In this document: positions 3,961 to 30,526 of the stretch, piece after piece
Position numbering within the stretch: position 1 is the first letter of the stretch
Layout of the letters: each line of letters begins with the position of its first letter
Source: Candidatus Saccharimonadota bacterium
GTDB taxonomy: Bacteria; Patescibacteriota; Gracilibacteria; BD1-5; UBA2023
DNA: 32,000 nt
Assembly: GCA_046350815.1 (NCBI GenBank)
Contig: JAXLZO010000001.1
Span: 660,001 to 692,000 of the forward strand
Direction of reading: 5' to 3'
Made by a program: the position numbers and the translations under genes
The notes under the pieces: generated by a model
The model's input: only the letters and a program-made list of their open reading frames with translations
Databases searched by the model: none
Told to the model about the DNA's origin: nothing

Positions 3961-4298
3961 ATATTAAATGTTATAGTTTATGCTTTGTATAAATAAAATA
4001 TCTCCAATCGTGTTAAGAATCTCTTGTGTGTCTCTATACAATATTTTTATTAATGGTATTTTGGTAGTAAAGAATGTATCGCGAACACGCGATAATTATA
4101 TGTTTGACACTCTTCAAAAGATTCATATTATTTACTTGCAATTTATTTATGCACAAAATAGTTTCTTTCTCGTTCTTCTATGCTTATTTCTTCTTTCAGA
4201 AACAACTGAAGGGTAGATTTGTGTAGTTGAGAATATTCTTAAATACAGATACCTCTCCTTCAGTCAGATGGAGATTTTTTATTATTAATACATTTTGT

Positions 4299-5414
<1,116 letters not shown>

Positions 5415-6336: not shown

Positions 6337-7143
6337 GGCTCTAGACCAGAAGAAAGTAACTCATATACTCTCTTCTTATGATCCCATACAGCAAAATATC
6401 AGTTCACGAACTTAAAAAGATTATTAAGTGCTTTTGTGTGGATATTGATACCACAAAAACAAGCGAGCTTTTGGGATATAATCGAAAGACGGTCAACCAT
6501 TATTTCTCTATCTTTAGGAAAATAATCTACACGAATCGTATTGAGGCTTTCAAAGAAAAGATAGGTTGAGAAATAGAAGTAGATGAAAGCTATTTCTGAG
6601 CCAAGCGAAAAAGATGATTTGCAGGAAAACTTAAACGATGAAGATGAACCCTCAAACAGCCAGTATTTTGACTCATCAAGAGAAAAGATGAGAATGGAAG
6701 AGTAGAAATATATACAGAGATTATTCCGAATTGCAAAGCTGTAACACTCCGCCCTATAATACAGGGAAAAGTCAGTGCCCCATAATCCAAGGAAAAGTCA
6801 GTCTAGAGAATTCTATCCTATATTCGGATGGCTGGAAAGGATACGATGGTCTCGTAGATGTATGAATCGACAAGCACTTTCGAGTCAACCATGGTACAAG
6901 TGAATTCTCACTTGGGAATGGAATTCACATCAATGGGATTGAGAACTTCTGGAGTTTTACAAAGCGCCGATTGAACAAGTTCAACGGCGTGAAAGTAAAC
7001 TTTCACCTTCATCTCAAAGAATGTGAATGGAGATATACCAAAGAAAGCTTTGAACTTGAGCAGGAACTTCTTACAATGATTAAAATCTTTTATAAAAAAT
7101 CCAGAAAATCTTAGATATTTCTAAAATCTTCTGGTCTAGAGCC
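6337..7143 (+). mobile_element. IS1595-family (ISXO2-like transposase) insertion sequence, copy 1, decayed
   Basis: 17-bp terminal inverted repeats GGCTCTAGACCAGAAGA at 6337-6353 and 7127-7143 (reverse complement) enclose a transposase ORF. No flanking target-site duplication was found. Confidence 0.8.
6378..7114 (+). pseudogene. ISXO2-like DDE transposase, frameshifted
   Basis: The N-terminal part (MIPYSKISVHELKKIIKCFCVD...GEIEVDESYFGAKRKRG, TGA=Gly) ends at TAA 6783-6785. The remainder (SILYSDGWKGYDGL...HINGIENFWSF...LKECEWRY) continues in another frame from 6782 to TAG 7112-7114. The shift coincides with an imperfect 26-bp duplication at 6756-6781 / 6782-6807. Confidence 0.8.
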
Positions 7144-11249: not shown

Positions 11250-13565
11250 ATGAGATCAAGAAGTAACTCCGGAATGTCCGATCATCATCAAGACTCACAC
11301 GATCACGACGCGCATCATGATGATGCAAATGAGTCCTCATCTGGCTTGGGGAGTATTTTTGTAGAAGAAAAATTACCTGAACCGATTGTGATAGAAGCAA
11401 TTATGCAAGATCTAAAAGAGAGAGAAGATGCGAACGAACCAATTGATATGAATGAGCTTCAAAAGCATCCATCGACTCGATATGCGAGAGTTATGGATGA
11501 GCTCGCATCATCACAGGCGCAGGATTTGGCTCTGGGTCGTGAAGAGTGAGTTGTTCCAATCATCCCAACAAAACTTCATGTCTACAATGATGGTAGAGAG
11601 ATACTGTCTGATCAGGTAGATTCGGATGAAAATATACAGCTTTCTCGAGAGTATCTTGAGAGTTCAGAGTGATTTCTCGTGGATGCACGAACAACCCTTC
11701 CACATACACGAGAGACCATGGATATGTTCGTGCCTTCTCGATCGATCGGTCGAAAAATTCTTCAATCATTGAAAATACCGATCGTAAAAGTAGTCCGACA
11801 AAAATCATTATGGTGATCATATTTTCATCGATTTCTCCTGCTTCTTCTGATTATACATCTTATTGGTGCTTGATTATTTATACTTGGATCATGGTCGATA
11901 TTGTCTCTACGTGACGCAAATACCTACCAACAGAGATCACAATATTCAATTATTGCAAAGTACAGTTTTGGTATTGCTCATCTTTTTCTTGCGCCAGTGG
12001 GACATGCACTCGAATGAATACCACCCACAGAAAGCATAGGGAAAAATTTCACAGCTCTTTTAAGAATTACTCACAACAGTTGAATACTCCTTCGAGAGTG
12101 ATCGCTCTTGGAAGGTGAATATCTTAGTAATTCCTCATCACAGGATCGTGAAGGATGAATCATGAGTATGCTCGTACAAACCTGATGATTGCAAACGGAT
12201 ATCGTTAAAACTTTTGATGGATGATCGGTGCATCTGCACAAGATGATAGAGAAAGCTCATAGTATCAGTGCTGACATGGATATTCTTAAGTGAAATATCG
12301 CTTTTGTAGATGCTACAAAATTACTGACTCTCAAGAGAATGGTTCGTTATTTTGCTGAGGGAGGGGAATATTATCTCTTGCATAAGGATGAAATACTCAC
12401 AGCTATGGGTCGCAATAAGCCGATGAGATATCTCATACTCAATCAAAACCGTGATGAAATCAGAGCAAGTGGGGGGTTCCCATGAAGTGTGATTTTTCTT
12501 GAGATGAATCGATGAGCTATCACAAAACTTGAATCTCGGGATATCTATTTCTATGATTGGAAACTTTATCCATATCAGGTCGAGCCACCTCCATGAATTC
12601 GTGAACTCACTACCAATTATGGACTGCGCGATGCAAACTACTCTCCAGTATTTGCAAAGAACTTTTCAGTGATAAATCAATTTCATGAGCGTGCTGGTTA
12701 TGAATCACTCGATGGTATCGTTGCTATTAATCAAGGAATTATTGAGGAAATTATCGATCACCTTGGTGGTGTGAATTTTCCTGAGATGCAGACGACAATT
12801 ACAAAAGAAAATTTTTCACTCTATATATCGAGTATCGTTGAGGCTCAGATTGGACGAAAAGACTCGGCAAAGGATATACTTTTTGCCTTTCAAAAACATT
12901 TTCTTGATGCTCTTAGATCATCCCCTCATGCGTATTTGGATATCATTGATGAGACACTCAGTGCTATCGATCGTGGTGAAATTCTCGCGGTATGGTGAGA
13001 CGACTCACTCTCTGATTTGAACGCAGCCTTTGAAGGAAATGCTCGAGCAATGAAAGATGGCTCGAACTGGATCTATCCAGTCTATACATCACTCTCAGGC
13101 AACAAATCCGATCGTTATATTCATCGATCTATCCGAATGACATCGAGTTTTGCAGAAAATTGTAATGCATCGAATGAAGTCGCCCTCACTCTCACTCACA
13201 CTCTTGATGATCGGGGTGCAAAAGCAATAGGAGTACTTCAGCAATCACTCGGTCTTACAGGATCTCTCTTGGATGAAAAAGTGCGAATTCAAGGAAGTGG
13301 ATCGAATATTGTGTACACACGCATTCTCGTACCAAAATGATCCAGTTTTACTCAACTTCCACAAGGTGCTACGAGGTTAAATGTAGAGAGTGATACTCCA
13401 TTTGCCGATGCAATTGCTTTCAAAATAGAGACATCACGCTGAAAATCACAAATAGTAAAGTTCGCCTATAAGACCCCATCACTCAAGAGTTGTGATGTAA
13501 CACCGATGATGATACGCCAACCATGACTCAAATCGGTCGAATTTATTTCTTGATTCAAAGACTAA
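11250..13565 (+). CDS. DUF4012 domain-containing membrane-anchored protein (771 aa)
   Basis: Fragments 11115-11549, 12669-12998 and 13017-13340 join in frame 0 across many TGA. It has an N-terminal His/Asp-rich region and one TM segment (FLLLLLIIHLIGAGLFILGSW). The motif YLILNQNRDEIRASGGFPG is typical of DUF4012 as I recall it. The start could instead be ATG 11274. Confidence 0.72.
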
Positions 13566-15269: not shown

Positions 15270-17363
15270 TTATGGGCAAGGTTCAAGATGTGTTTGACCA
15301 TCTACTCCATTATTGCGAAATAATCCGGAAATTACAGGACAACTGATACTAATCGCACTAATATCTGGTATAGAATTATAACGAAAAGCACCATTCACCC
15401 ATGATTCTCATCACCATTCTTCTCTATCTCAATCTGAAGTTTGGTAGGATTGGAAAGAAATATTATCAGGAATCACAATAGATGTAAGACTATTATGACT
15501 GAAAGCGTCAGTTTCAACTATAACGTTATTCGTCTCTGGAAATGTCACAGATGTGAGTCCCTTGCCTTCAAAGGATCATCGAGAAATTCTTGTGACAGTA
15601 ACATTGTCAATAGATTCCGGTATAGTAACAACCGATCAACAAGCTGAATTATAAGACAATATCATTCCATTTATATTAATAGAGAAACAAGGTCACCTTG
15701 CTTGTATCGACCATTCCGATTCAGTTCCATTAAAATATATTGTTACTTGTTTATTCTCATTTTCTTGCAGAAGAGCGGCTACTCTATATTCCACCTGATC
15801 GTCATTGTGAGTGATCTGACCACTGGTAACCCATGAACCTCCGTTAATACGCAACTCTCCGCCAACAACAGCAATATCTACAGGAGTAGAGATATGACTC
15901 GCTGTTACCACATTTGAAATAATATCCGTACCAAGAGGAGCGTTGGTCACGCTATATGGCGGTGAAAGTGATGGTGGAATAACAAGAGGTGGTGGAAGTA
16001 TAATCCCTAACTCATGCTGTGACCCGACATAAAAATCAGTTGAACTCGTTGATCCTGTACAACCATAGGGAGTAACATCGAGAAAGCTTGACTGTGGAGT
16101 ACAAGCTATACTCGCATATGGAGTCTCAAATGCTATATTCGATGGCATATTAGTACTGCCAGCAAGAATAGTAACGGGAGATTGATAGTTGCTATCTAGA
16201 ATGAATGTATCAATCACATATCCATCCACCGTATCATCTATGAGTGACCCAGGAGTAATCGTCGTAATAGTCACTCCATAAGTTGCATAGAGAGATATAG
16301 TAAGAGGCCCTATATATCCATAGTAGGTATTCCCCATAATACTATACTCTCCCATAGTAAGTATATGACTTACCGGTCATCCTCCTCCACCTCCAGAATC
16401 ACCACCCCCAGAACCTGATCCACTCCCCGTACCACTATTCATCCCCAAGAGTGCCTTCTCATCAAAGCTTCCATCCTTCAGAGAAAGAAGAGATCAAGTA
16501 GAGATATCCATGGATACATATTCATCAGCTCACTGTGATCCTACCATGATATCAAGCGTACTTGCATCACTCAAAGAGATATCTCTACTTCCTGTACCAC
16601 TCACTCCATTCTGAAGAGGTTGCTTACTTCCCTTGGAGAGAAAGATTCAAAGTCTATCTCCTGCAGAGTAGGGATATCTCGAAGAGAGATCAGTAGTACT
16701 GCTATCGAGAGCATAAGCAGTATCCAAGGTATAAGCTTGAGAGAAGAGAGAAGGAAGATTGGAAGGGAGAGCAGAAGTCAGAGATTGCGAAGCAATCTCT
16801 TGTATCCTTCATCTCCCTGCAATCTCAATACTCCTCTCAAATCTTGGATTCTCAAGGTATGCCATGAACTGAGCTTGGTCGTAGTGTTGATTGACTCGAT
16901 AGGTATAGGGTATATTGTCTTTTGGATCAAAGATCTTATCTGATCCATATCCAAGAGGATTTACCAGAGCAAGACTCATGAATCATTGGTATCCGATGAA
17001 TGATCCACTCACACTAAGAGAGACACTATCTGCTATAGGTGTAGGAAGCTTTCGAAGCTGTGCACTGGTAATTCTCGCACTCTCTGACAATGTCTTAATA
17101 TCACTAATTCTCTTTCCATCTCTTGCTACTGATGACTGATGACTCATCACGACAAACCCTATCACGGATAGTATAGAGAGTATGGTAATAACTACTATGA
17201 GTTCTGTGAGAGTGAAACCACTCTTATTTCAAAAACCCCTCTTCTTTCAAGAAATTCTCTCCTCTCAAGACTCCCTCTCCTCTCAAGACTCCCTCTCCTC
17301 TCAAGAATTCTTCTTCTCTCAAAAGACTCTTTTGAGAAATTGAAACGATGACAGATATCACAT
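15270..17363 (-). CDS. type IV pilin-like (prepilin N-terminal cleavage/methylation motif) protein with C-terminal BspA-type leucine-rich repeats (697 aa)
   Basis: Fragments 15693-16355 and 16983-17165 plus untracked pieces form one frame with 20 in-frame TGA. The class III signal is KSG/FTLTELIVVITILSILSVIGF (about 17222-17150). A Gly/Ser linker lies at 16380-16440. The LRR pattern VTIPESIDNVTVTRISRGSFEGKGLTSVTFPETNNVIVETDAFSHNSLTSIVIP lies within 15270-15690. The only in-frame ATG upstream is at 17363, so the start is uncertain. Stop is TAA 15270-15272. Confidence 0.72.
17241..17330 (-). repeat. 18-bp tandem repeat, about 5 units (2 perfect), inside the annotated 5' end of the pilin-like gene
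   Basis: Plus-strand units are CTCCTCTCAAGACTCCCT at 17259-17276 and 17277-17294, with degenerate units on both sides. Each unit carries one TGA on the coding strand and encodes G-E-E-R-E-S under code 25. Confidence 0.85.
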
Positions 17364-17418
17364 AATATTGAAAACAGATTACTCAGAGTATTCCAACATA
17401 CTTTCATCAGAAAGACAA

Positions 17419-22319: not shown

Positions 22320-23042
22320 TTACCCTTGCTTTCATTGTGATTCAGATGATACAATACCTAACTTCATATTCGCAGGCAGAGCGATATCAATATATTTTGG
22401 ATATTCGAGTTTGAGTCGATGCATCGTCTCGGTGAGTTCTTCGATGGAGGTATCCGATCGCATGCGAGTATTGTAGAGTTTTTCTTCTCCGATTGTACTC
22501 ATAGTGAGCCCTTGGTAGTCATGTCCAGGATAGACACGAGTTGTGTCAGGGAGTGTGTAGAGTTTTGTGATGCTTTGATGGAGTTTCGCAGGAGATCATT
22601 GTTGAAAATCCGTCCGACCGGTCTTGCGAATGAGGAGTGTGTCTCCTGTGAAGATCATATCTTCGATGAGATAGCTCGTACATCCATCAGTATGTCCTGG
22701 AGTAGCAAATGATCGAACATCGATAGACCCTACACGGATAACTTCGTTATCCACAAGCAAGATATCAGGCTGAGCAACTGCCGCACCTATTCCCATGACA
22801 ATCTTTGCTCAGGTTCTCTCACGGAGCACACCACTGCCGGTGATATGATCTGCATGAATATGTGTATCGAATATATGCGTGAGCCTCAGTCAAAGCTCAC
22901 TAATGAGTTTGAGATCGCGATCAACTTGGTCAATAACAGGATCAATAATGAGTGCTGATCAGGTATTTGTATCACCTACGAGATAGCTATAGGTCCAGGT
23001 TTTTTCATCGAAGAGTTGACGAAAGAGAATGTTGGAAGGCAT
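22320..23042 (-). CDS. MBL-fold persulfide dioxygenase (ETHE1/Blh-like), 240 aa
   Basis: N-terminus MPSNILFRQLFDEKTWTYSYLVGD...ALIIDPV, metal motif THIHADHITG, then ATPGHTDGC...FTGDTLLIRKTGRTDFQ. There are four in-frame TGA. Stop is TAA 22320-22322. Confidence 0.88.
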
Positions 23043-23137
23043 AAAAAGAAATGAAAATAAATACATGTGATTGAGAAAAGAGGGGTTTAGTGTGGCCACC
23101 ATATTGTCACACACCATCGTCAAGCTGTTTTCATAGA

Positions 23138-23929
23138 TTACAGAGAGAGAAATTCACGACCAATCATGATGAGCGCCATAGCCATAGTAAATATACCAAA
23201 AGCTTTTGAGAGTATTGTTGTTGGTATTCGTTTTTGGAGTATGAGTCCGAGTATGAGTCCCACGATGGCGAGGCTAATGCTAGTAGTTATCAAGGTTATA
23301 TGCTCGTTCGAAAATTCATGTGGGAGTCAGCTGAGAAACCCTATGCCAGAATTCATCGTAATAATCACGAGAGATGTAGCGACAGCACTACGAAGCGTCA
23401 GTCATTCGAGTGCCATAAGTGCTGGAACGATGAGAAATCCACCACCAGCACCAACCATCCCAGTGATAGCACCAACTATTCATCATTCAAGTGTTGTGAT
23501 GAGATGTTTTTTCCACCCAATGATACGAGCACCTTCTTGAAGATGATTTATTTTTCTCTTACATACTATGGAACATCCGGCAGCAAACATGATCAATCCA
23601 AAGAGGAGTAATACGAGTGTTCATTTTTCAATAAGTCCGATATGATCAGGAATGCGCTCGATGAGGAAATGACGAGAGAAATAGGTAGCGAGAAGAGACG
23701 GTATTCCAAATATGATCACTTTGTCCCAAAGAATCTCTGAGTTTTTGATTTTTGTGAGTGCTCCCACAAAAGCGGTGCTACCAACAATGATAAGGCTATA
23801 GTAGGTTGCTTCGAGAGGATTGATATGAAAGAGATACACCAGTATCGGTACGGTCAGGATCGCTCCTCATCCTCCGACGAGTCCGACTACCATACCCATG
23901 ATGATCATCGAGAAGAAAGGAAAAATCAT
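23138..23929 (-). CDS. TauE/SafE family (DUF81) anion exporter-like membrane protein, 263 aa
   Basis: MIFPFFSMIIMGMVVGLVGGGGAILTVPILVY with a UGA-encoded Gly at 23867-23869. A second repeat reads GMVGAGGGFLIVPAL. It is hydrophobic throughout. Stop is TAA 23138-23140. Confidence 0.82.
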
Positions 23930-23942
23930 AGATATGGGAGAG

Positions 23943-24257
23943 TTACATATGTTTTTGTAGGAGTGATACGAGATCAGTGACAGAATGCACGCCGGAAGTT
24001 CGCTCGATGATCACACCATCTTTGAAGAGAATCATTGTAGGAATACTTCGTATTGCAAGTTGTTGCGCAATATTTGGTTCATTATCGACATTGTGCTTCA
24101 TGATACGAGCTCGATCTCCGATTTGTTTTGCGAGATCTTCGAGAATCGGTCACATCATTTGGCATGGGCCACACCATGGAGCCCAGAAATCTACGAGTAC
24201 AAGACCTTGTGATGTATCACGAGCGAAGTTAGAATCAGTGGATGTAAGAACAGACAT
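23943..24257 (-). CDS. trxA: thioredoxin (104 aa)
   Basis: [16 protein letters not shown] active-site motif and ...[13 protein letters not shown]. One in-frame TGA. Stop is TAA 23943-23945. Confidence 0.9.
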
Positions 24258-24288
24258 AGAAAACAAGTGAAAAAATGAAAAAGAGAAG

Positions 24289-24633
24289 TTATGCTAAATA
24301 GGATATTTGAAATGCTTGAGTAATCTCGAGGATTTTCGACCGAGTTTCATAGAGGGATTTGATGCTCCCCGCAACGTTGGTTGCTTGTTTCCCATTTTGT
24401 GCGAGCCATGCACACGCTTGCCCACTGCGAGCTCCGGTACGACAGAGGATGTAAACCTCTTTTTTGAAATCAATCTCTTGATACCGATCAGGGAATTGGG
24501 AAATTGGAATGAGTTTTGCTTGAGGGATTCGGATCATATCCCATTCATTCTGTTCTCGCACATCGATGAGCTCAATGTTTGGATTTTTTTGAAGAATTTG
24601 CTCGAGCTGCATTGCGGATATTTCTTGGTACAT
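24289..24633 (-). CDS. single-domain rhodanese sulfurtransferase (114 aa)
   Basis: Intact track ORF. The active-site loop is ILCRTGARS (CxxxxR). Stop is TAA 24289-24291. Confidence 0.85.
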
Positions 24634-24642
24634 AGAGGTGAA

Positions 24643-25068
24643 TTATGGGATAAACTTTTTTGTAAGGAACATGCTGGTAAGCATACTCACAAGGAAAATC
24701 AGGGTGAAACTCTGATGGAATATAATAGCACCTACAGCTGGTCCGGGACAGAGACCGCCGAGTCACCACCCGATACCAAAGAGTATTGATCCAATAACTA
24801 GTTTCTTGTCAATTATTCCTTTTCTCTCCCATGAGAAATACCACTTTTCCGCAAAGAATGGCTTTGGATGTTTCTCGAGGATAAAGTGTCCGAGGAGTGA
24901 TATACTGAGCGCGCCTATCATGACAAAGATGAGGGTTGGATCCCAAGTGCCAAATATATCAAAAAATCATCGTACGCGATCGGGTGAGAGCATATCCGAG
25001 TAAGCAAGTCCATATCCGAAGAGCCCACCAGATAGGAGCGAAAGGAGAGCAGATGTGAGGTGTTTCAT
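24643..25068 (-). CDS. YeeE/YedE family sulfur-transport membrane protein, second half-size paralogue (141 aa)
   Basis: MKHLTSALLSLLSGGLFGYGLAYSDMLSPDRVRGFFD...FGIGWGLGGLCPGPA. It starts 3 nt after the upstream stop. Stop is TAA 24643-24645. Confidence 0.78.
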
Positions 25069-25071
25069 ATA

Positions 25072-25482
25072 CTACAAGAAGTTATGAAGCGTGACAGTAG
25101 CGATACCACTCGACACAAAGAGAAGTGTTGCGATGATCGATCTCTGAGAGAGTCGACCGATGCCACAGACAGCGTGCCCACTTGTGCAACCATTTGCGAG
25201 CGTTATACCGATACCTACGAGTATTCCACTTATGATTGCTATGGTAGACGATGTTTCCGTATTTGAGGGGATATATGCACTATGGTTGAGAGTATAGAGC
25301 CCGACTCCGACGGGTATACCGAGGAGAAATGTATAGCGCCATATGCCGTGTTCACCGCCAGGAAGGACTCACTTGAGGATGCCTGATATGCCCATGACAC
25401 GCCCGAGTCAGCCAGACATAATAAGTGCTGCTATACCGATGAGTATACCACCGATGAGAGCATGAATATAGAGAGGATTCAT
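25072..25482 (-). CDS. YeeE/YedE family sulfur-transport membrane protein, first half-size paralogue (136 aa)
   Basis: MNPLYIHALIGGILIGIAALIMSGGLGRVMGISG...LANGCTSGHAVCGIGRLS. Stop is TAG 25072-25074. Confidence 0.78.
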
Positions 25483-25487
25483 AAATT

Positions 25488-25784
25488 TTAACATTGGTTA
25501 TTGCAATAAATAGTGGCGAGAGATTTCAGCATCTGAGATATACGGTTATCTTGGATGCGGTAGTACACAAAGATGCCATCTTTACGACTCTCGATGAGTC
25601 ATTCTTGACGCATCTTAGCGAGGAATTGTGAGAGCTGTGATTGAGATATGCTACAGAATTTCTCAAGATCGCCGACACTCATTTCTCCTTCAGAGAGTTT
25701 ACAGAGGATGAGAAGCCGCTTTGGATGAGCGAGGAGCTTGAGAATCTCTGCTACTTCGGAGGCTTTTTGTTCGAGTTCATTCAT
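25488..25784 (-). CDS. ArsR/SmtB-family transcriptional regulator, BigR/SqrR-like (98 aa)
   Basis: Track ORF 25599-25784 continues across TGA 25599 to TAA 25488-25490. The wHTH pattern is ILKLLAHPKRLLILCKLSEGEMSVGDL...SQSQLSQFLAKMRQEGLI. Cys28 lies in helix 2, with Cys94/Cys98 near the C-terminus. It is the first gene of the sulfur operon. Confidence 0.85.
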
Positions 25785-26912: not shown

Positions 26913-27002
26913 AAGATTATCATAATTACAAAATATTAGTTTAGATTACCAAAATAGTACATAGGATATTAAACTATATAGTGCCCAAAGAGTATGCTAT
27001 TT

Positions 27003-27768
27003 GGCTCTAGACAAGCAAACATTTGAATAATTGAGCGTTTCGCTAATCTTCTGAGAAGGAGCCGTAAGGCTTCTTCTTTCTTATTGCGATAATTATACCG
27101 AAACTCACATTCTTTCAAATGAAGATGGAATTTGTCTGCTCGGATTCAGTTTAATTTGATCATTCTTTGTTTTGCAAAACTCCAAAATGCCTCTATACCG
27201 TTTACATGACTTTTTCATCTCGCAAACTTAACGAAGTGTATGCCTGTGGTGCATTGTGTGAATGAAACACTCTATAATGTTCGTATCCATTGAGTATAAG
27301 CCCATCATAACTTGTCCAACCATCAGAGTTGACCGTGGATCATTCCAGAACTTTTCCTTGTATAGTATAGGCATTAATGAGTCTCTACTACAATCTGGAA
27401 CAATACTTACAGAGACATTTCAGTTTCTTTTCTGAAGTCCAAACACTGTGGTGTTTTTCCAGCCGCTCACCTTCATTGTTTTCCTCTGACTCGTCTTGCA
27501 CCGAAGTAACTCTCATCAACTTCAAATTCTCAGAATTCTTTTCAAAACTTTGATGATTCTTCAATAGATATTCTCACAATTTCTTCTCGAAATATAGCAT
27601 AGTACCTGTTAATAGTGTTACGAGATATTTCGAGAAGTTCTGATGTTTGAGTAGCAGTAAAGTCTCCTAAAAATAGCTTCAAAATTTCTCGTATTTTCTC
27701 AGAGCTGATTTTACTGTATTTAATCATATGGAACTAGTGTAAGAAGATAATTCTTCTTGTCTAGAGCC
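27003..27768 (-). mobile_element. IS1595-family insertion sequence, copy 2, decayed, with target-site duplication
   Basis: Terminal inverted repeats GGCTCTAGACAAG at 27003-27015 and 27756-27768 (reverse complement). The flanking 7-bp direct repeat GCTATTT is at 26996-27002 and 27769-27775. Confidence 0.82.
27005..27727 (-). pseudogene. ISXO2-like transposase with multiple frameshifts
   Basis: The N-terminal part is MIKYSKISSEKIREILKLFLGDF...GEFEVDESYFGARRVRGKQGRGAAGKTP. The homologous sequence then continues in three further frames (VFGLQKRNGNVSVSIVPDCSRDSLMPI; QGKVLEGSTVNSDGWTSYDGLILNGYEHYRVFHS; VNGIEAFWSFAKQR...HLHLKECEFRYN). Confidence 0.75.
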
Positions 27769-27827
27769 GCTATTTTTCTATTTAGCCTGATTCCTATGAA
27801 CATTTCCCAAGATTCATTGTTTTAATG

Positions 27828-27874: not shown

Positions 27875-27958
27875 TGGTGCCCAGAAAGGGATTTGAACCC
27901 TCACACCTTGCGGCATACGCGTCTGAGACGTACGTGTCTACCATTCCACCACCTGGGC
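27875..27958 (-). tRNA. tRNA-Leu (anticodon CAG), class II with long variable arm, CCA encoded
   Basis: The minus strand reads GCCCAGG-TG-GTGGAATGGTAGACAC-G-TACGT-CTCAGAC-GCGTA-TGCCGCAAGGTGT-GAGGG-TTCAAAT-CCCTT-TCTGGGC-ACCA. All four stems pair, with G-U pairs allowed. Confidence 0.9.
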
Positions 27959-28182: not shown

Positions 28183-29241
28183 ATGGATTTGCCACGAATG
28201 GTTCTCGATTGATTGAAATGATCCTATGTTGTTTTTATGACGAATACATCATTGACACTCTATCCTCTCTGAACGGGTTTGATCAATGATACCTGGATTA
28301 CCAATACTCAAGAGAATAACAAACGCTATGTTGTACAACGACTCAATACAAAGGTATTTCCATCATATCAGTCCATAGAGAACAATCTTCGTTTAGCAAA
28401 AGAAATACTCTCCGATAAAGACTATCTTCTTTTTCTTCCTATTGAAAATACGAACGGAAATCTCCATACAACTATTGCTGATGAGATATATCGTGTGACT
28501 GAGTTTTCTGAGGGAAGTCAGGTATATGATGCCCCTCCGAGCGACCAACATATTTACGAGGCTGCAAAGGCATTTGCAACTTTTACCCGCTATCTTGAGC
28601 GAGAAAGGGTAGGGGAGTTTGAGGAGACGATCGTAGATTTTCATAATCTTACGAAGAGATTTGCTGATCTGGAAAAGGCATGGGAATCTTGTGAAGATCA
28701 GGAGAGGCGATCACAAGCGGAGCCCCTCATGAATTTTGCTCTTGCTAATTGTTGGATTGTTGATTTATATACTCGGTCAGTAAAATCTATTCCGAAACGG
28801 ATATATCATCACGATACAAAAGTAAATAATATTCTCTTCAAGACATGAACAACACAGGTAATCGCCCCGATTGATCTTGATACGATTATGCCTGGATATA
28901 TTTTCTCAGATCTTGGCGATATGATCTGGTCGATTGCTGCTTGAGTCGATCACAGTAATCTTGATCTTACATCCATTGTAATTGATTGATCTCGATACGA
29001 CGCTATTATGAAAGGTTACCAAGAAGGAATTTCAGAAGCCTTAACATCCGAAGAGAAATCACTCCTTCCTTATGCCGGACTTGTTATGTCCTACATGCTC
29101 GGTTTACGATTTTTGGCAGATTATCTTATGGGTGATAGTTATTTTAAGGTATCGTATATATGAGAAAATCTTGATCGAACAACAGCACAATTTCGAGTGG
29201 CGAAGCTTCTCATCGATGATGGTTTCACTCCTATTTGTTAG
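28183..29241 (+). CDS. aminoglycoside-phosphotransferase-fold (APH / NahK-like) kinase, 352 aa
   Basis: Track ORF 28279-28848 extends both ways. Motifs: N-terminal YPLGNGLINDTWIT, catalytic RIYHHDTKVNNILF, and metal-binding APIDLDT. The start at ATG 28183 is 16 nt after a likely TSS below TATAAT (28155-28160), with alternatives at 28198 and 28237. Stop is TAG 29239-29241. Confidence 0.78.
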
Positions 29242-29243
29242 AT

Positions 29244-29271
29244 TTGACAAATATTAAAAATAGCATAAATT
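29244..29271 (+). promoter_or_regulatory. sigma70-like promoter candidate for the glycine-rich microprotein gene
   Basis: TTGACA (29244-29249), 16-nt spacer, TAAATT (29266-29271). The ATG is at 29296. Confidence 0.4.
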
Positions 29272-29295: not shown

Positions 29296-29535
29296 ATGGC
29301 ATGAGGTGGATGACATGGAGGTCATGAGAAAGGTCATGGTGGCTGAGGCGGTGGAGGAAGTGGCGGATGAGTCATGAAATGATTTGCTATCACTGGGGCA
29401 CTCTGAGCTACTGCGGTTGTGTGAGGTGCTGCGGCTCTTGGTGGACTCTTTCTCTGACCAATTGGTGCCATTGTTGGTGGTGTTGGAGCTGCGGTTGCTG
29501 GCATAATGTGATGAAAAGCGTTGATAAAAAAATAA
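29296..29535 (+). CDS. glycine-rich microprotein (79 aa) with His/Gly-rich N-terminus and glycine-zipper hydrophobic C-terminus
   Basis: Open only under code 25, with 10 in-frame TGA: MAGGGGHGGHEKGHGGGGGGGSGGGVMKGFAITGALGATAVVGGAAALGGLFLGPIGAIVGGVGAAVAGIMGGKALIKK. Stop is TAA 29533-29535. It is bracketed by a promoter candidate and a strong terminator. The track shows only antisense ORFs here. Confidence 0.6.
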
Positions 29536-29553
29536 CATTTGTGTAAATATTTG

Positions 29554-29583
29554 GTGGAGAAATTCGTTTTCTCCACTTTTTTT
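29554..29583 (+). terminator. rho-independent terminator after the glycine-rich ORF
   Basis: GTGGAGAA-attcgtt-TTCTCCAC followed by T7. Confidence 0.8.
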
Positions 29584-29611
29584 GTATACTGAATTTCTAC
29601 CCATCTTTTCT

Positions 29612-30526
29612 ATGCATTTTCTCAATCGAATCATATTTGCCACATTCTTTTTTCTTTGTTCTACAGTGAGTTCTGTATCAGCTCTCGAGATTATACCGAT
29701 CTCATCAGAGAATGGCGTCCTACTCTCGAGTGTCCGTGATGACAAGTATGCAAAAAATTCAAAGGTATACCTTGTTGAAACGAATCTCGCGAGTGGTGCA
29801 ACGATTCGCTCGAGTGCTACTCTCGTTGACGATCAAAATGCTCAATCGCCAGGATTTATGCTTCGGCCACTTGTCTCATCTGTAACATCAAAGGCACCTA
29901 TCGCAGCATCGCTATGTGACCCAAAGGATAAAATAGTTAATGCATGAGTGCAAGTAGCGTCACATCTTGATCTTATGAGCACATCGAGAACTCCATTTGC
30001 ACTCTTGAATGGACAGTTCTTCGGGAATTATTATGCACTCCAGCCAGGTTATACTTCTCGGCTTGCTTTTGGTGTATTTCAAGATGGTGATGTCCTTTCA
30101 CTTGGATATGGTCGCATCGAGGCATATCGCAAGAAGATACTGACAATCTCATCAAAATGAGCTCGTATTCAATGATACAAGCTCTCAAATGCCTATGCTC
30201 TCAAATGAGAAACAGGCTCACTCGCGATCGTCGGTCTTCATCCACTCGCGAATAAAGATTCACGATCAGAAAGTAATCTTGGTCGTGTCTATGTTGGTGT
30301 TGGTGGTGCGAAGATTCGTGGCGGATGATCTTCAAAGATATACTTTCTCGTTGCGACTGGCATAGAGGAACGAGAAGCTTTTGCTATCCTTCGCAAAGCA
30401 TGAGCTCGTGAGACAATGATGCTCGATGGGGGATGATCGACGCAGATCTGGGCAGCCGGACAGTCTCGTATATCCTCATCTCGTCCTATTCCGCACGCAA
30501 TAGCTCTCTTCTCAGCTAATCGTTAG
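29612..30526 (+). CDS. secreted phosphodiester glycosidase family protein (DUF2233/NAGPA-like), 304 aa
   Basis: Track ORFs 29582-29947 and 29948-30160 continue across TGA. The signal peptide is MHFLNRIIFATFFFLCSTVSSVSA. C-terminal ...TMMLDGGGSTQIW matches the family motif as I recall it. Stop is TAG 30524-30526. Confidence 0.68.

Follow-up and report, generated by a model that had tools for sequence, protein, structure and literature searches.

A conserved glycine-rich gene concealed by UGA recoding in Gracilibacteria and its predicted small membrane product

The window (the whole 32-kb stretch of DNA analysed here) carries, between genes for an APH-family phosphotransferase and a secreted phosphodiester glycosidase (NAGPA), a short reading frame that stays open from ATG to TAA when UGA is read as glycine (Table 1). 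Translation bears out this frame as the first-pass annotation had drawn it, and a codon count returns the proposed 32 glycines among 79 residues, ten of them encoded by UGA (GGA 7, GGC 4, GGG 1, GGT 10, TGA 10). Read with table 11, the same frame begins MA-stop-GG-stop, is broken repeatedly further on (for example, VMK-stop, then FAITGAL-stop and ATAVV-stop) up to the run PIGAIVGGVGAAVAGIM, and ends with two adjacent stops, KALIKK, and the final stop. The accompanying statement that the plus strand holds no standard-code ORF here does not strictly hold, as the other plus frames contain code 11 ORFs of 23, 40, and 59 aa. The promoter-like site reported ahead of the ORF (TTGACA, 16 nucleotides, TAAATT) is present, as is the hairpin with a run of seven T behind it, although we count its stem as 10 pairs. 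The phosphodiester glycosidase said to follow directly downstream is there too and, in its TGA=Gly translation, is identical to NCBI MFO0763903.1, a phosphodiester glycosidase family protein from a Candidatus Gracilibacteria MAG. A convergent kinase-like gene also flanks the locus. For the wider context, 10 proteins of the window were scanned with Pfam and the remaining ORFs were judged by eye on their translations.

Table 1. Positions of the microprotein gene, its signals, the parts of its product, and the two neighbouring genes in the window.
Feature	Position	Strand	Description
Upstream neighbour, APH-family phosphotransferase	28183..29241	+	PF01636, E 5e-12
Sigma-70-type promoter-like site	29244..29271	+	TTGACA 29244-29249, 16-nt spacer, TAAATT 29266-29271; 10/12 matches
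Microprotein CDS	29296..29535	+	ATG to TAA, 79 codons plus TAA, code 25, 10 TGA=Gly
Head, residues 1-25	29296..29370	+	Gly/His-rich, ends in a poly-Gly run; variable, two head types
Hydrophobic segment 1, residues 29-53 (GFAITGALGATAVVGGAAALGGLFL)	29380..29454	+	follows conserved M27-K28; the more variable segment
Invariant Gly54-Pro55	29455..29460	+	inferred turn or kink
Hydrophobic segment 2, residues 56-73	29461..29514	+	invariant G57-x3-G61-x3-A65-x3-G69 face
Basic C-terminal tail KALIKK	29515..29532	+	K74, A75, K78, K79 invariant
Intrinsic terminator	29553..29584	+	hairpin 29553-29577 with 10-pair stem and 5-nt loop, then T7 run
Downstream neighbour, secreted phosphodiester glycosidase (NAGPA)	29612..30526	+	Sec-type signal peptide

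The window uses code 25 (UGA = Gly), the code stated for Gracilibacteria and Absconditabacteria (PMC11452946), as sequence evidence shows. An end-to-end alignment pairs the DAHP synthase (4227-5414(+)) with E. coli AroF at E 6e-116, and six of its seven aligned in-frame TGA codons fall on glycines of the E. coli protein; and the longest stop-to-stop frame in the 32 kb, with no start codon needed, grows from 1185 nt under code 11 to 3279 nt when TGA is read through. In this genome, however, an open frame says little. The trinucleotides TAA and TAG are strongly depleted across the window (408 and 316 occurrences, against 912 of TGA), so long open frames are poor evidence of genes: under code 25 the six frames hold 167 stop-to-stop ORFs of at least 100 codons, many of them overlapping. 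At the microprotein locus itself the window allele leaves all three plus frames open, along with two of the antisense ones. Given this depletion and the three open plus frames, the open frame alone is weak evidence, not above chance. Nor do the ten UGA codons carry the special meaning that the first-pass annotation had attached to them: TGA makes up 31% of the glycine codons in the microprotein ORF and 25% in 13 confident genes of the window (p = 0.42), and their number follows from a glycine content of 41%. No Shine-Dalgarno motif precedes the microprotein ATG or the starts of 15 other window genes (16 start codons in all), the leaders being AT-rich; its lack before the microprotein is therefore normal here.

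The case for a real gene is instead comparative. Relatives were gathered by a metagenome scan with the downstream glycosidase and by exact look-ups of its cluster members, which together yielded about 20 related metagenome contigs with glycosidase identities of 83-98%, one of them from a wastewater metagenome. In every contig that covers the spot, the ORF is present and intact between the APH kinase and the glycosidase, with its ATG and TAA conserved. There are seven distinct alleles, of 72, 73, 74, 76, 77, 78, and 79 aa, and every length change is in frame. In-frame TGA codons stand at glycine positions and swap with GGN codons in the orthologs, as in a protein-coding gene of code 25; this interchange occurs in seven alignment columns and is synonymous only if this strand and this frame are read with code 25. 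Conservation of the frame in relatives, with GGN/UGA interchange and indels in multiples of three, was the check that had been proposed at the outset for this ORF, and it passed. Differences in the tail fall on codon positions 1, 2, and 3 in the proportions 11/1/27 (window versus L005) up to 22/11/33, so that position 2 of the sense frame is the most conserved. The microprotein frame has the lowest pN/pS of the frames (0.17-0.43), and the Nei-Gojobori dN/dS under code 25 is 0.13-0.28. The wobble-matched antisense frame reaches 0.42-0.61 and lies above the sense frame in 6/6 allele pairs, and the remaining four frames range from about 0.8 to above 1. On these sequence comparisons the gene is shown to evolve under purifying selection, and the microprotein is almost certainly a genuine, translated code 25 gene; its reality rests on the comparative evidence and not on the open frame.

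The same comparisons bear on the suggestion that the frame is a by-product of TAA/TAG depletion and that the real product is a noncoding RNA or a protein read from an antisense or other frame, which we regard as highly improbable. The several open frames of the window allele speak for it, as does a public gene caller that picked another frame and produced a 63-aa protein (P0029). Against it, stop codons interrupt the alternative plus frames in other alleles; pN/pS exceeds about 1 in those frames, stands at about 1 in the codon-aligned antisense frame, and is higher in the wobble-matched antisense frame than in the sense frame in every pair; the start, stop, and reading frame are kept with position 2 best conserved; and Rfam finds no RNA family at the locus. 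The suggestion is largely refuted by the allele comparisons. An internal start at the invariant Met27, which may instead give a 53-aa product, was also considered and looks less likely: at least five indels leave the frame of the head unbroken, its pN/pS is 0.27-0.48, and it opens with a conserved ATG.

The family is seen in one narrow clade only, in which glycosidase identity is at least 83%. An allele profile run against six-frame code 25 translations of the window and of loci L001-L007 recovered orthologs and no paralogs. Genome contig representatives scanned with the upstream kinase gave distant, non-syntenic matches only, from which it follows that the species is absent from those representatives, and a scan of viral contigs gave no match.

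The gene is also flanked by what looks like its own set of transcription signals. Across all alleles the TTGACA hexamer and the spacing of the promoter-like site are kept, with TAAATT or TAGTAT as the -10 hexamer. The terminator hairpin folds at -18.1 kcal/mol (z-score -4.2) and is nearly invariant among alleles (nucleotide diversity 0.019). From this conserved promoter and terminator, the microprotein gene is predicted to form its own, independently transcribed-looking unit. The stretch 29536-29611, which comprises the terminator and the 5' leader of the glycosidase, is near-invariant in all alleles (diversity 0.019), and the coding sequence on both sides of it is saturated at synonymous sites. 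This constraint exceeds what a terminator usually needs, and a promoter or leader of the glycosidase, or a regulatory site, may also lie there.

Despite its conservation, the gene is missing from public protein sets. Exact look-ups of three alleles, each in a Gly and a Trp version, and of the window allele started at Met27 found none of these sequences among about 15 billion proteins, a set in which the NCBI protein of the neighbouring gene is present. Most related contigs have no gene call in the gap. Code 4 gene calls on identical Logan contigs took the different frame that gives the 63-aa P0029, and several ENA/NCBI calls join a wrong frame to the glycosidase to give 394-aa proteins (P0002, P0020). 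In locus L023 a 76-aa call overlaps the position of the ORF. The only call in the correct frame that we recovered as a protein record is P0006, in which Trp is written for UGA. The microprotein also appears to be missing from the code 25 NCBI annotation of the apparent source genome. The gene is hidden because callers mishandle the recoded stop codon UGA, and the outcome is an annotation blind spot in which a conserved gene with its own promoter-like site and terminator is absent from 15 billion protein predictions: code 4 and code 11 callers break the ORF, choose a wrong frame, or fuse a wrong frame to the next gene. Small glycine-rich ORFs are the class hit hardest in organisms in which UGA encodes glycine, and the proteomes of Gracilibacteria and Absconditabacteria may therefore systematically lack small glycine-rich membrane proteins. 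The spurious 394-aa fusions in ENA/NCBI-derived sets are seen at locus L011 and in the cluster of P0002 (P0020, P0027, P0028).

The architecture of the product can be read from an alignment of five alleles, from which residue conservation was taken. The head comes in two unrelated types, MAGGGGHG(G/S)(H/P)EK... and MSDPHKKTES..., both of which end in a His followed by 8-10 Gly/Ser residues. Entry to the hydrophobic part is marked by an invariant Met27, then Lys28 (Glu in one allele), and then an invariant Gly29. Next come about 45 uncharged residues, built from Gly, Ala, Val, Leu, Ile, and Thr, which Gly54-Pro55 divides in two, and the alleles end in the pattern KA(L/M)(I/M)KK. Residues invariant in all five alleles are G54, P55, G57, G61, A65, V67, G69, K74, A75, K78, and K79; four of the five invariants in the second half of the hydrophobic stretch (G57, G61, A65, V67, G69) stand in i, i+4 register. 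The 19-residue Kyte-Doolittle mean is 1.9-2.15 in all alleles, with a maximum in the window allele of 1.89 at residues 52-70. The microprotein has no signal peptide, no lipobox, and no secretion leader.

Two features that the first-pass annotation had emphasised fare differently under this comparison. The Gly/Ala-rich hydrophobic tail with GxxxG spacing stands as a membrane-type tail with an invariant small-xxx-small face, whereas the number of GxxxG motifs is not above chance, with three in the window allele against 4.4 expected in composition-matched shuffles. The longer pattern (G/A/S)xxxGxxx(G/A/S) is enriched over shuffles in the less glycine-rich alleles (P 0.004-0.05) and not in the window allele. 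The assignment to the transmembrane glycine zipper, a motif class and not a homology family, is based on the invariance of G57, G61, A65, and G69 across five alleles and not on motif counts. The histidine-rich head read as a metal-binding segment does not hold up, as its histidine content is not conserved and the two unrelated head types have only the poly-Gly run in common. An AF2 model of P0006 (the Trp-substituted allele of L010) made from the single sequence leaves residues 1-21 without secondary structure, with pLDDT below 50 at 13 of the first 16 residues, and places residues 22-75 in one continuous helix with no hairpin (mean pLDDT 72, about 85 in the helix).

Sequence databases offer little to compare with this product. 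The recoded peptide has no significant match in Pfam, NCBIfam, PHROGs, PADLOC, or the PDB sequences, and the best non-significant matches are compositional: C19orf12-like proteins (the best Pfam match, E 0.24-0.31), the RTX N-terminal domain, and tape-measure transmembrane segments. The Pfam glycine-zipper families PF13488, PF13441, and PF05433 are not listed even at E<=10; PHROGs returns weak matches to tape-measure proteins or proteins of unknown function and no holin family; and no PADLOC anti-phage defence profile matches at E<=0.1. A word-indexed search of 5.8 billion proteins found nothing with the Gly version and one ortholog only, P0006, with a mixed G/W alignment. HMMER with P0006 as query against 1.84 billion representatives returned only P0006 itself and a low-complexity G/W repeat protein. 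The microprotein resembles Gly-zipper_Omp, Gly-zipper_YMGG, Rick_17kDa_Anti, and C19orf12-like hairpins in composition and zipper spacing; it has no significant match to the Pfam glycine-zipper families, whose members tend to be more polar than it and are for the most part linked to lipoproteins. Among the known small glycine-zipper-type membrane proteins it is a new orphan.

Taken as a whole, we lean towards a real gene for a membrane-retained small protein that works by helix packing. Its parts differ in standing. The product is likely to be a membrane protein that stays in the cytoplasmic membrane of its producer, because it has none of the signals for export or lipid attachment sought above. 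Its most likely mode of insertion would be as a hairpin of two helices whose ends both lie in the cytoplasm, a topology inferred from the length of the uncharged stretch (about 45 residues), its central Gly-Pro, and the lysines on both flanks (M-K and KxxxKK). The Gly/His-rich head would then be a flexible, disordered cytoplasmic tail. In helix 2 the face G57-x3-G61-x3-A65-x3-G69 has a spacing that would suit tight, glycine-zipper-like helix packing, and the protein probably would act by helix-helix association through this face, with itself or with a larger membrane partner; helix 1 appears to vary freely, as a lipid-facing helix would. To the mechanism as such, packing through the invariant small-residue face, we give about even chances. 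Beyond this, the functional class is a guess, because no homolog of known function exists, and the toxin, immunity, and stress roles first suggested are guesses as well. We think a non-lethal role, accessory or membrane-modulating, more probable than a killing one, because the promoter is near consensus, there is no partner gene, and the gene is intact in every strain. Of the interpretation first put forward, the gene and the membrane zipper-like tail survive, and the bacteriocin resemblance, the metal-binding head, and the special UGA usage do not. Small membrane proteins rich in Gly and Ala are no surprise in themselves. This one, however, is an easily synthesised orphan of 72-79 aa from an uncultivated episymbiotic lineage, and its natural allele series, in which helix 1 varies and the zipper face of helix 2 does not, makes hypotheses about helix packing and membrane activity testable.

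Among the other functions that such a protein might have, a pore-forming toxin of the holin/pinholin or type I toxin kind is unlikely. Here the hairpins would oligomerise through the helix 2 zipper and depolarise the membrane of the producer. In pinholin S21 68, a glycine zipper in TMD2 drives pinhole formation (PMC9025707), and the microprotein recalls that protein and the class II holins in its size (about 70 aa), its two Gly/Ala-rich transmembrane segments, its putative N-in/C-in topology, the zipper face in its second segment, and its short basic C-terminus (PMC9025707). Segment 1 is rich in the weakly hydrophobic residues Gly, Ala, Ser, and Thr, and its weak likeness in composition to RTX pore domains and tape-measure transmembrane segments points in the same direction. 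Membership in the holins or pinholins would show as a family match and as a neighbouring endolysin gene within a phage or prophage; the microprotein has neither a holin match in PHROGs or Pfam nor any sequence match to pinholin S21 68, and no endolysin context. The locus lies among chromosomal housekeeping genes, and the ORFs inspected across the 32 kb include no phage genes, phage lysis genes, or toxin delivery system. The glycosidase downstream is separated from the gene by the terminator and carries a Sec-type signal peptide of its own. The near-consensus promoter looks constitutive, and the locus has no visible antitoxin or antiholin partner; a check for an antisense antitoxin found no promoter-like site on the minus strand, either inside the gene or immediately behind it. 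Finally, the charged, glycine-rich head of 20-25 residues, compared with about five residues in pinholin S21 68, would hinder a pinholin-type release of helix 1.

A second possibility, which we consider quite unlikely, is that the microprotein is an orphan immunity-type protein, a two-helix hairpin in the membrane that neutralises a glycine-zipper or ionophoric toxin of competitors or hosts, its alleles reflecting toxin specificity. The CdiI proteins that act against the ionophore toxins of contact-dependent inhibition (CDI) systems are very hydrophobic two-helix hairpins of 72-100 residues with cytoplasmic termini (PMC11630599). The microprotein is like them in size, hydrophobicity, putative hairpin with cytoplasmic termini, and polymorphism between strains (PMC11630599), and its highly divergent alleles are exchanged between near-identical strains (L004 and L005; L005, L007, and L012). 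Unlike CdiI, however, it has no adjacent CdiA or other toxin gene and no delivery system beside it, and the window contains no CDI system. Its dN/dS of 0.13-0.28 is that of ordinary purifying selection, its pS between distant strains resembles that of the neighbouring kinase, and mosaic divergence is found in neighbouring regions too, so that the recombination need not be driven by selection.

Class II bacteriocins and class IIa microcins have a Gly/Ala-rich hydrophobic composition that the microprotein resembles, and it had been likened to Gly-rich bacteriocins and microcins. Its head would then be a leader cut at Gly-Gly and its tail a membrane-active antimicrobial, and the head does contain many GG pairs. 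Membrane-depolarising glycine-zipper toxin domains, such as the C-terminus of the T7SS protein EsxX, and the bacteriocins and microcins have Gly/Ala-rich hydrophobic helices with small-xxx-small spacing, as the microprotein does. The likeness stops there, and we judge a secreted precursor of this kind very unlikely. Glycine-zipper toxin domains sit at the C-terminus of secreted LXG or CdiA proteins, and the microprotein does not; bacteriocins and microcins bear leaders, are exported, and come with transporters and immunity genes of their own, none of which were found for it. No Pfam or NCBIfam bacteriocin or double-glycine leader family matches any of five alleles even at E<=10, and the PDB sequences give no match. 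The hydrophobic pattern typical of double-glycine leaders is missing from the head, of which there are two unrelated types. Among the ORFs inspected in the 32 kb, there is no C39-peptidase ABC exporter and no accessory, processing, or immunity gene, the only ABC protein seen being of the soluble ABC-F type. The basic C-terminal tail and the lysine ahead of segment 1 fit a retained membrane hairpin.

Variation among the alleles is unevenly spread. Among seven haplotypes, nucleotide diversity peaks at 0.20-0.34 over 29391-29510, which covers both hydrophobic segments, is lowest (0.019) in the terminator, and has a second peak of 0.26 over the glycosidase signal peptide at 29612-29690. Over 4.1 kb, L004 and L005 differ at 76 positions, of which 55 are in the CDS, 19 in the signal-peptide region, and two elsewhere. 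Conversely, 86 differences separate L005 from L007 in 2.2 kb, and not one of them falls in the 345 nt occupied by promoter, CDS, and terminator; L005 and L012 show the same pattern, so one allele is common to L005, L007, and L012. Backgrounds that bear identical alleles differ by about 4%, and neighbouring regions likewise show mosaic divergence. Identical alleles on diverged backgrounds, together with the contrast between L004 and L005, imply that alleles have moved by short-tract recombination, and such exchange between strains is the predicted source of the pattern, although chimerism in metagenome assembly is an alternative source of mosaic contigs. Between the window and the L005 group, pS is 0.66 in the CDS versus 0.55 in the kinase, and pN in the CDS is about twice that of the kinase. 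The simplest reading is a loosely constrained, lipid-facing helix 1 combined with ordinary recombination; balancing selection on the alleles is possible.

A more elaborate reading, to which we give a small weight, is a strain-specificity cassette: a membrane-active toxin/immunity-like or recognition peptide with ancient, diverged alleles in wastewater populations of Gracilibacteria. The near-identity of L004 and L005 outside the CDS and signal peptide bears on it, as do the shared alleles on backgrounds about 4% diverged. If it were true, alleles would be swapped between near-invariant promoter and terminator "handles" and would determine the competitors or host cells that a strain can resist or attack. 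A diversity-generating retroelement, suggested by a variable patch with sharp edges and a conserved hairpin behind it, was rejected because the changes are mostly synonymous and at third positions, not adenine-templated changes at first and second positions; no template-like repeat for such an element was found in the window.

Several other features of the window are recorded here as observations in their own right. Remnants of IS1595/ISXO2-like transposases, split over several frames, lie at 26969-27733(-) and 6360-7114(+). The remnant at about 27002-27769 adjoins a tRNA-Leu (27875-27958) and is absent from the related contig L007, which marks it as a recent insertion. A sulfur-handling cluster at 22320-25497(-) encodes an MBL-fold hydrolase, a TauE/SafE exporter, and, as recognised by eye, a pair of YeeE/YedE-like membrane proteins. 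The DUF4012 protein of about 760 aa at 11280-13565(+) has a His/Asp-rich head (MSDHHQDSHDHDAHHDD) that, unlike the microprotein head, is plausible as a metal-binding segment. At 15270-17378(-), a 703-aa pilin-like protein combines a prepilin N-methylation motif with a BspA-type LRR region and carries an N-terminal triple (G)EERES repeat in which the glycines are TGA codons.
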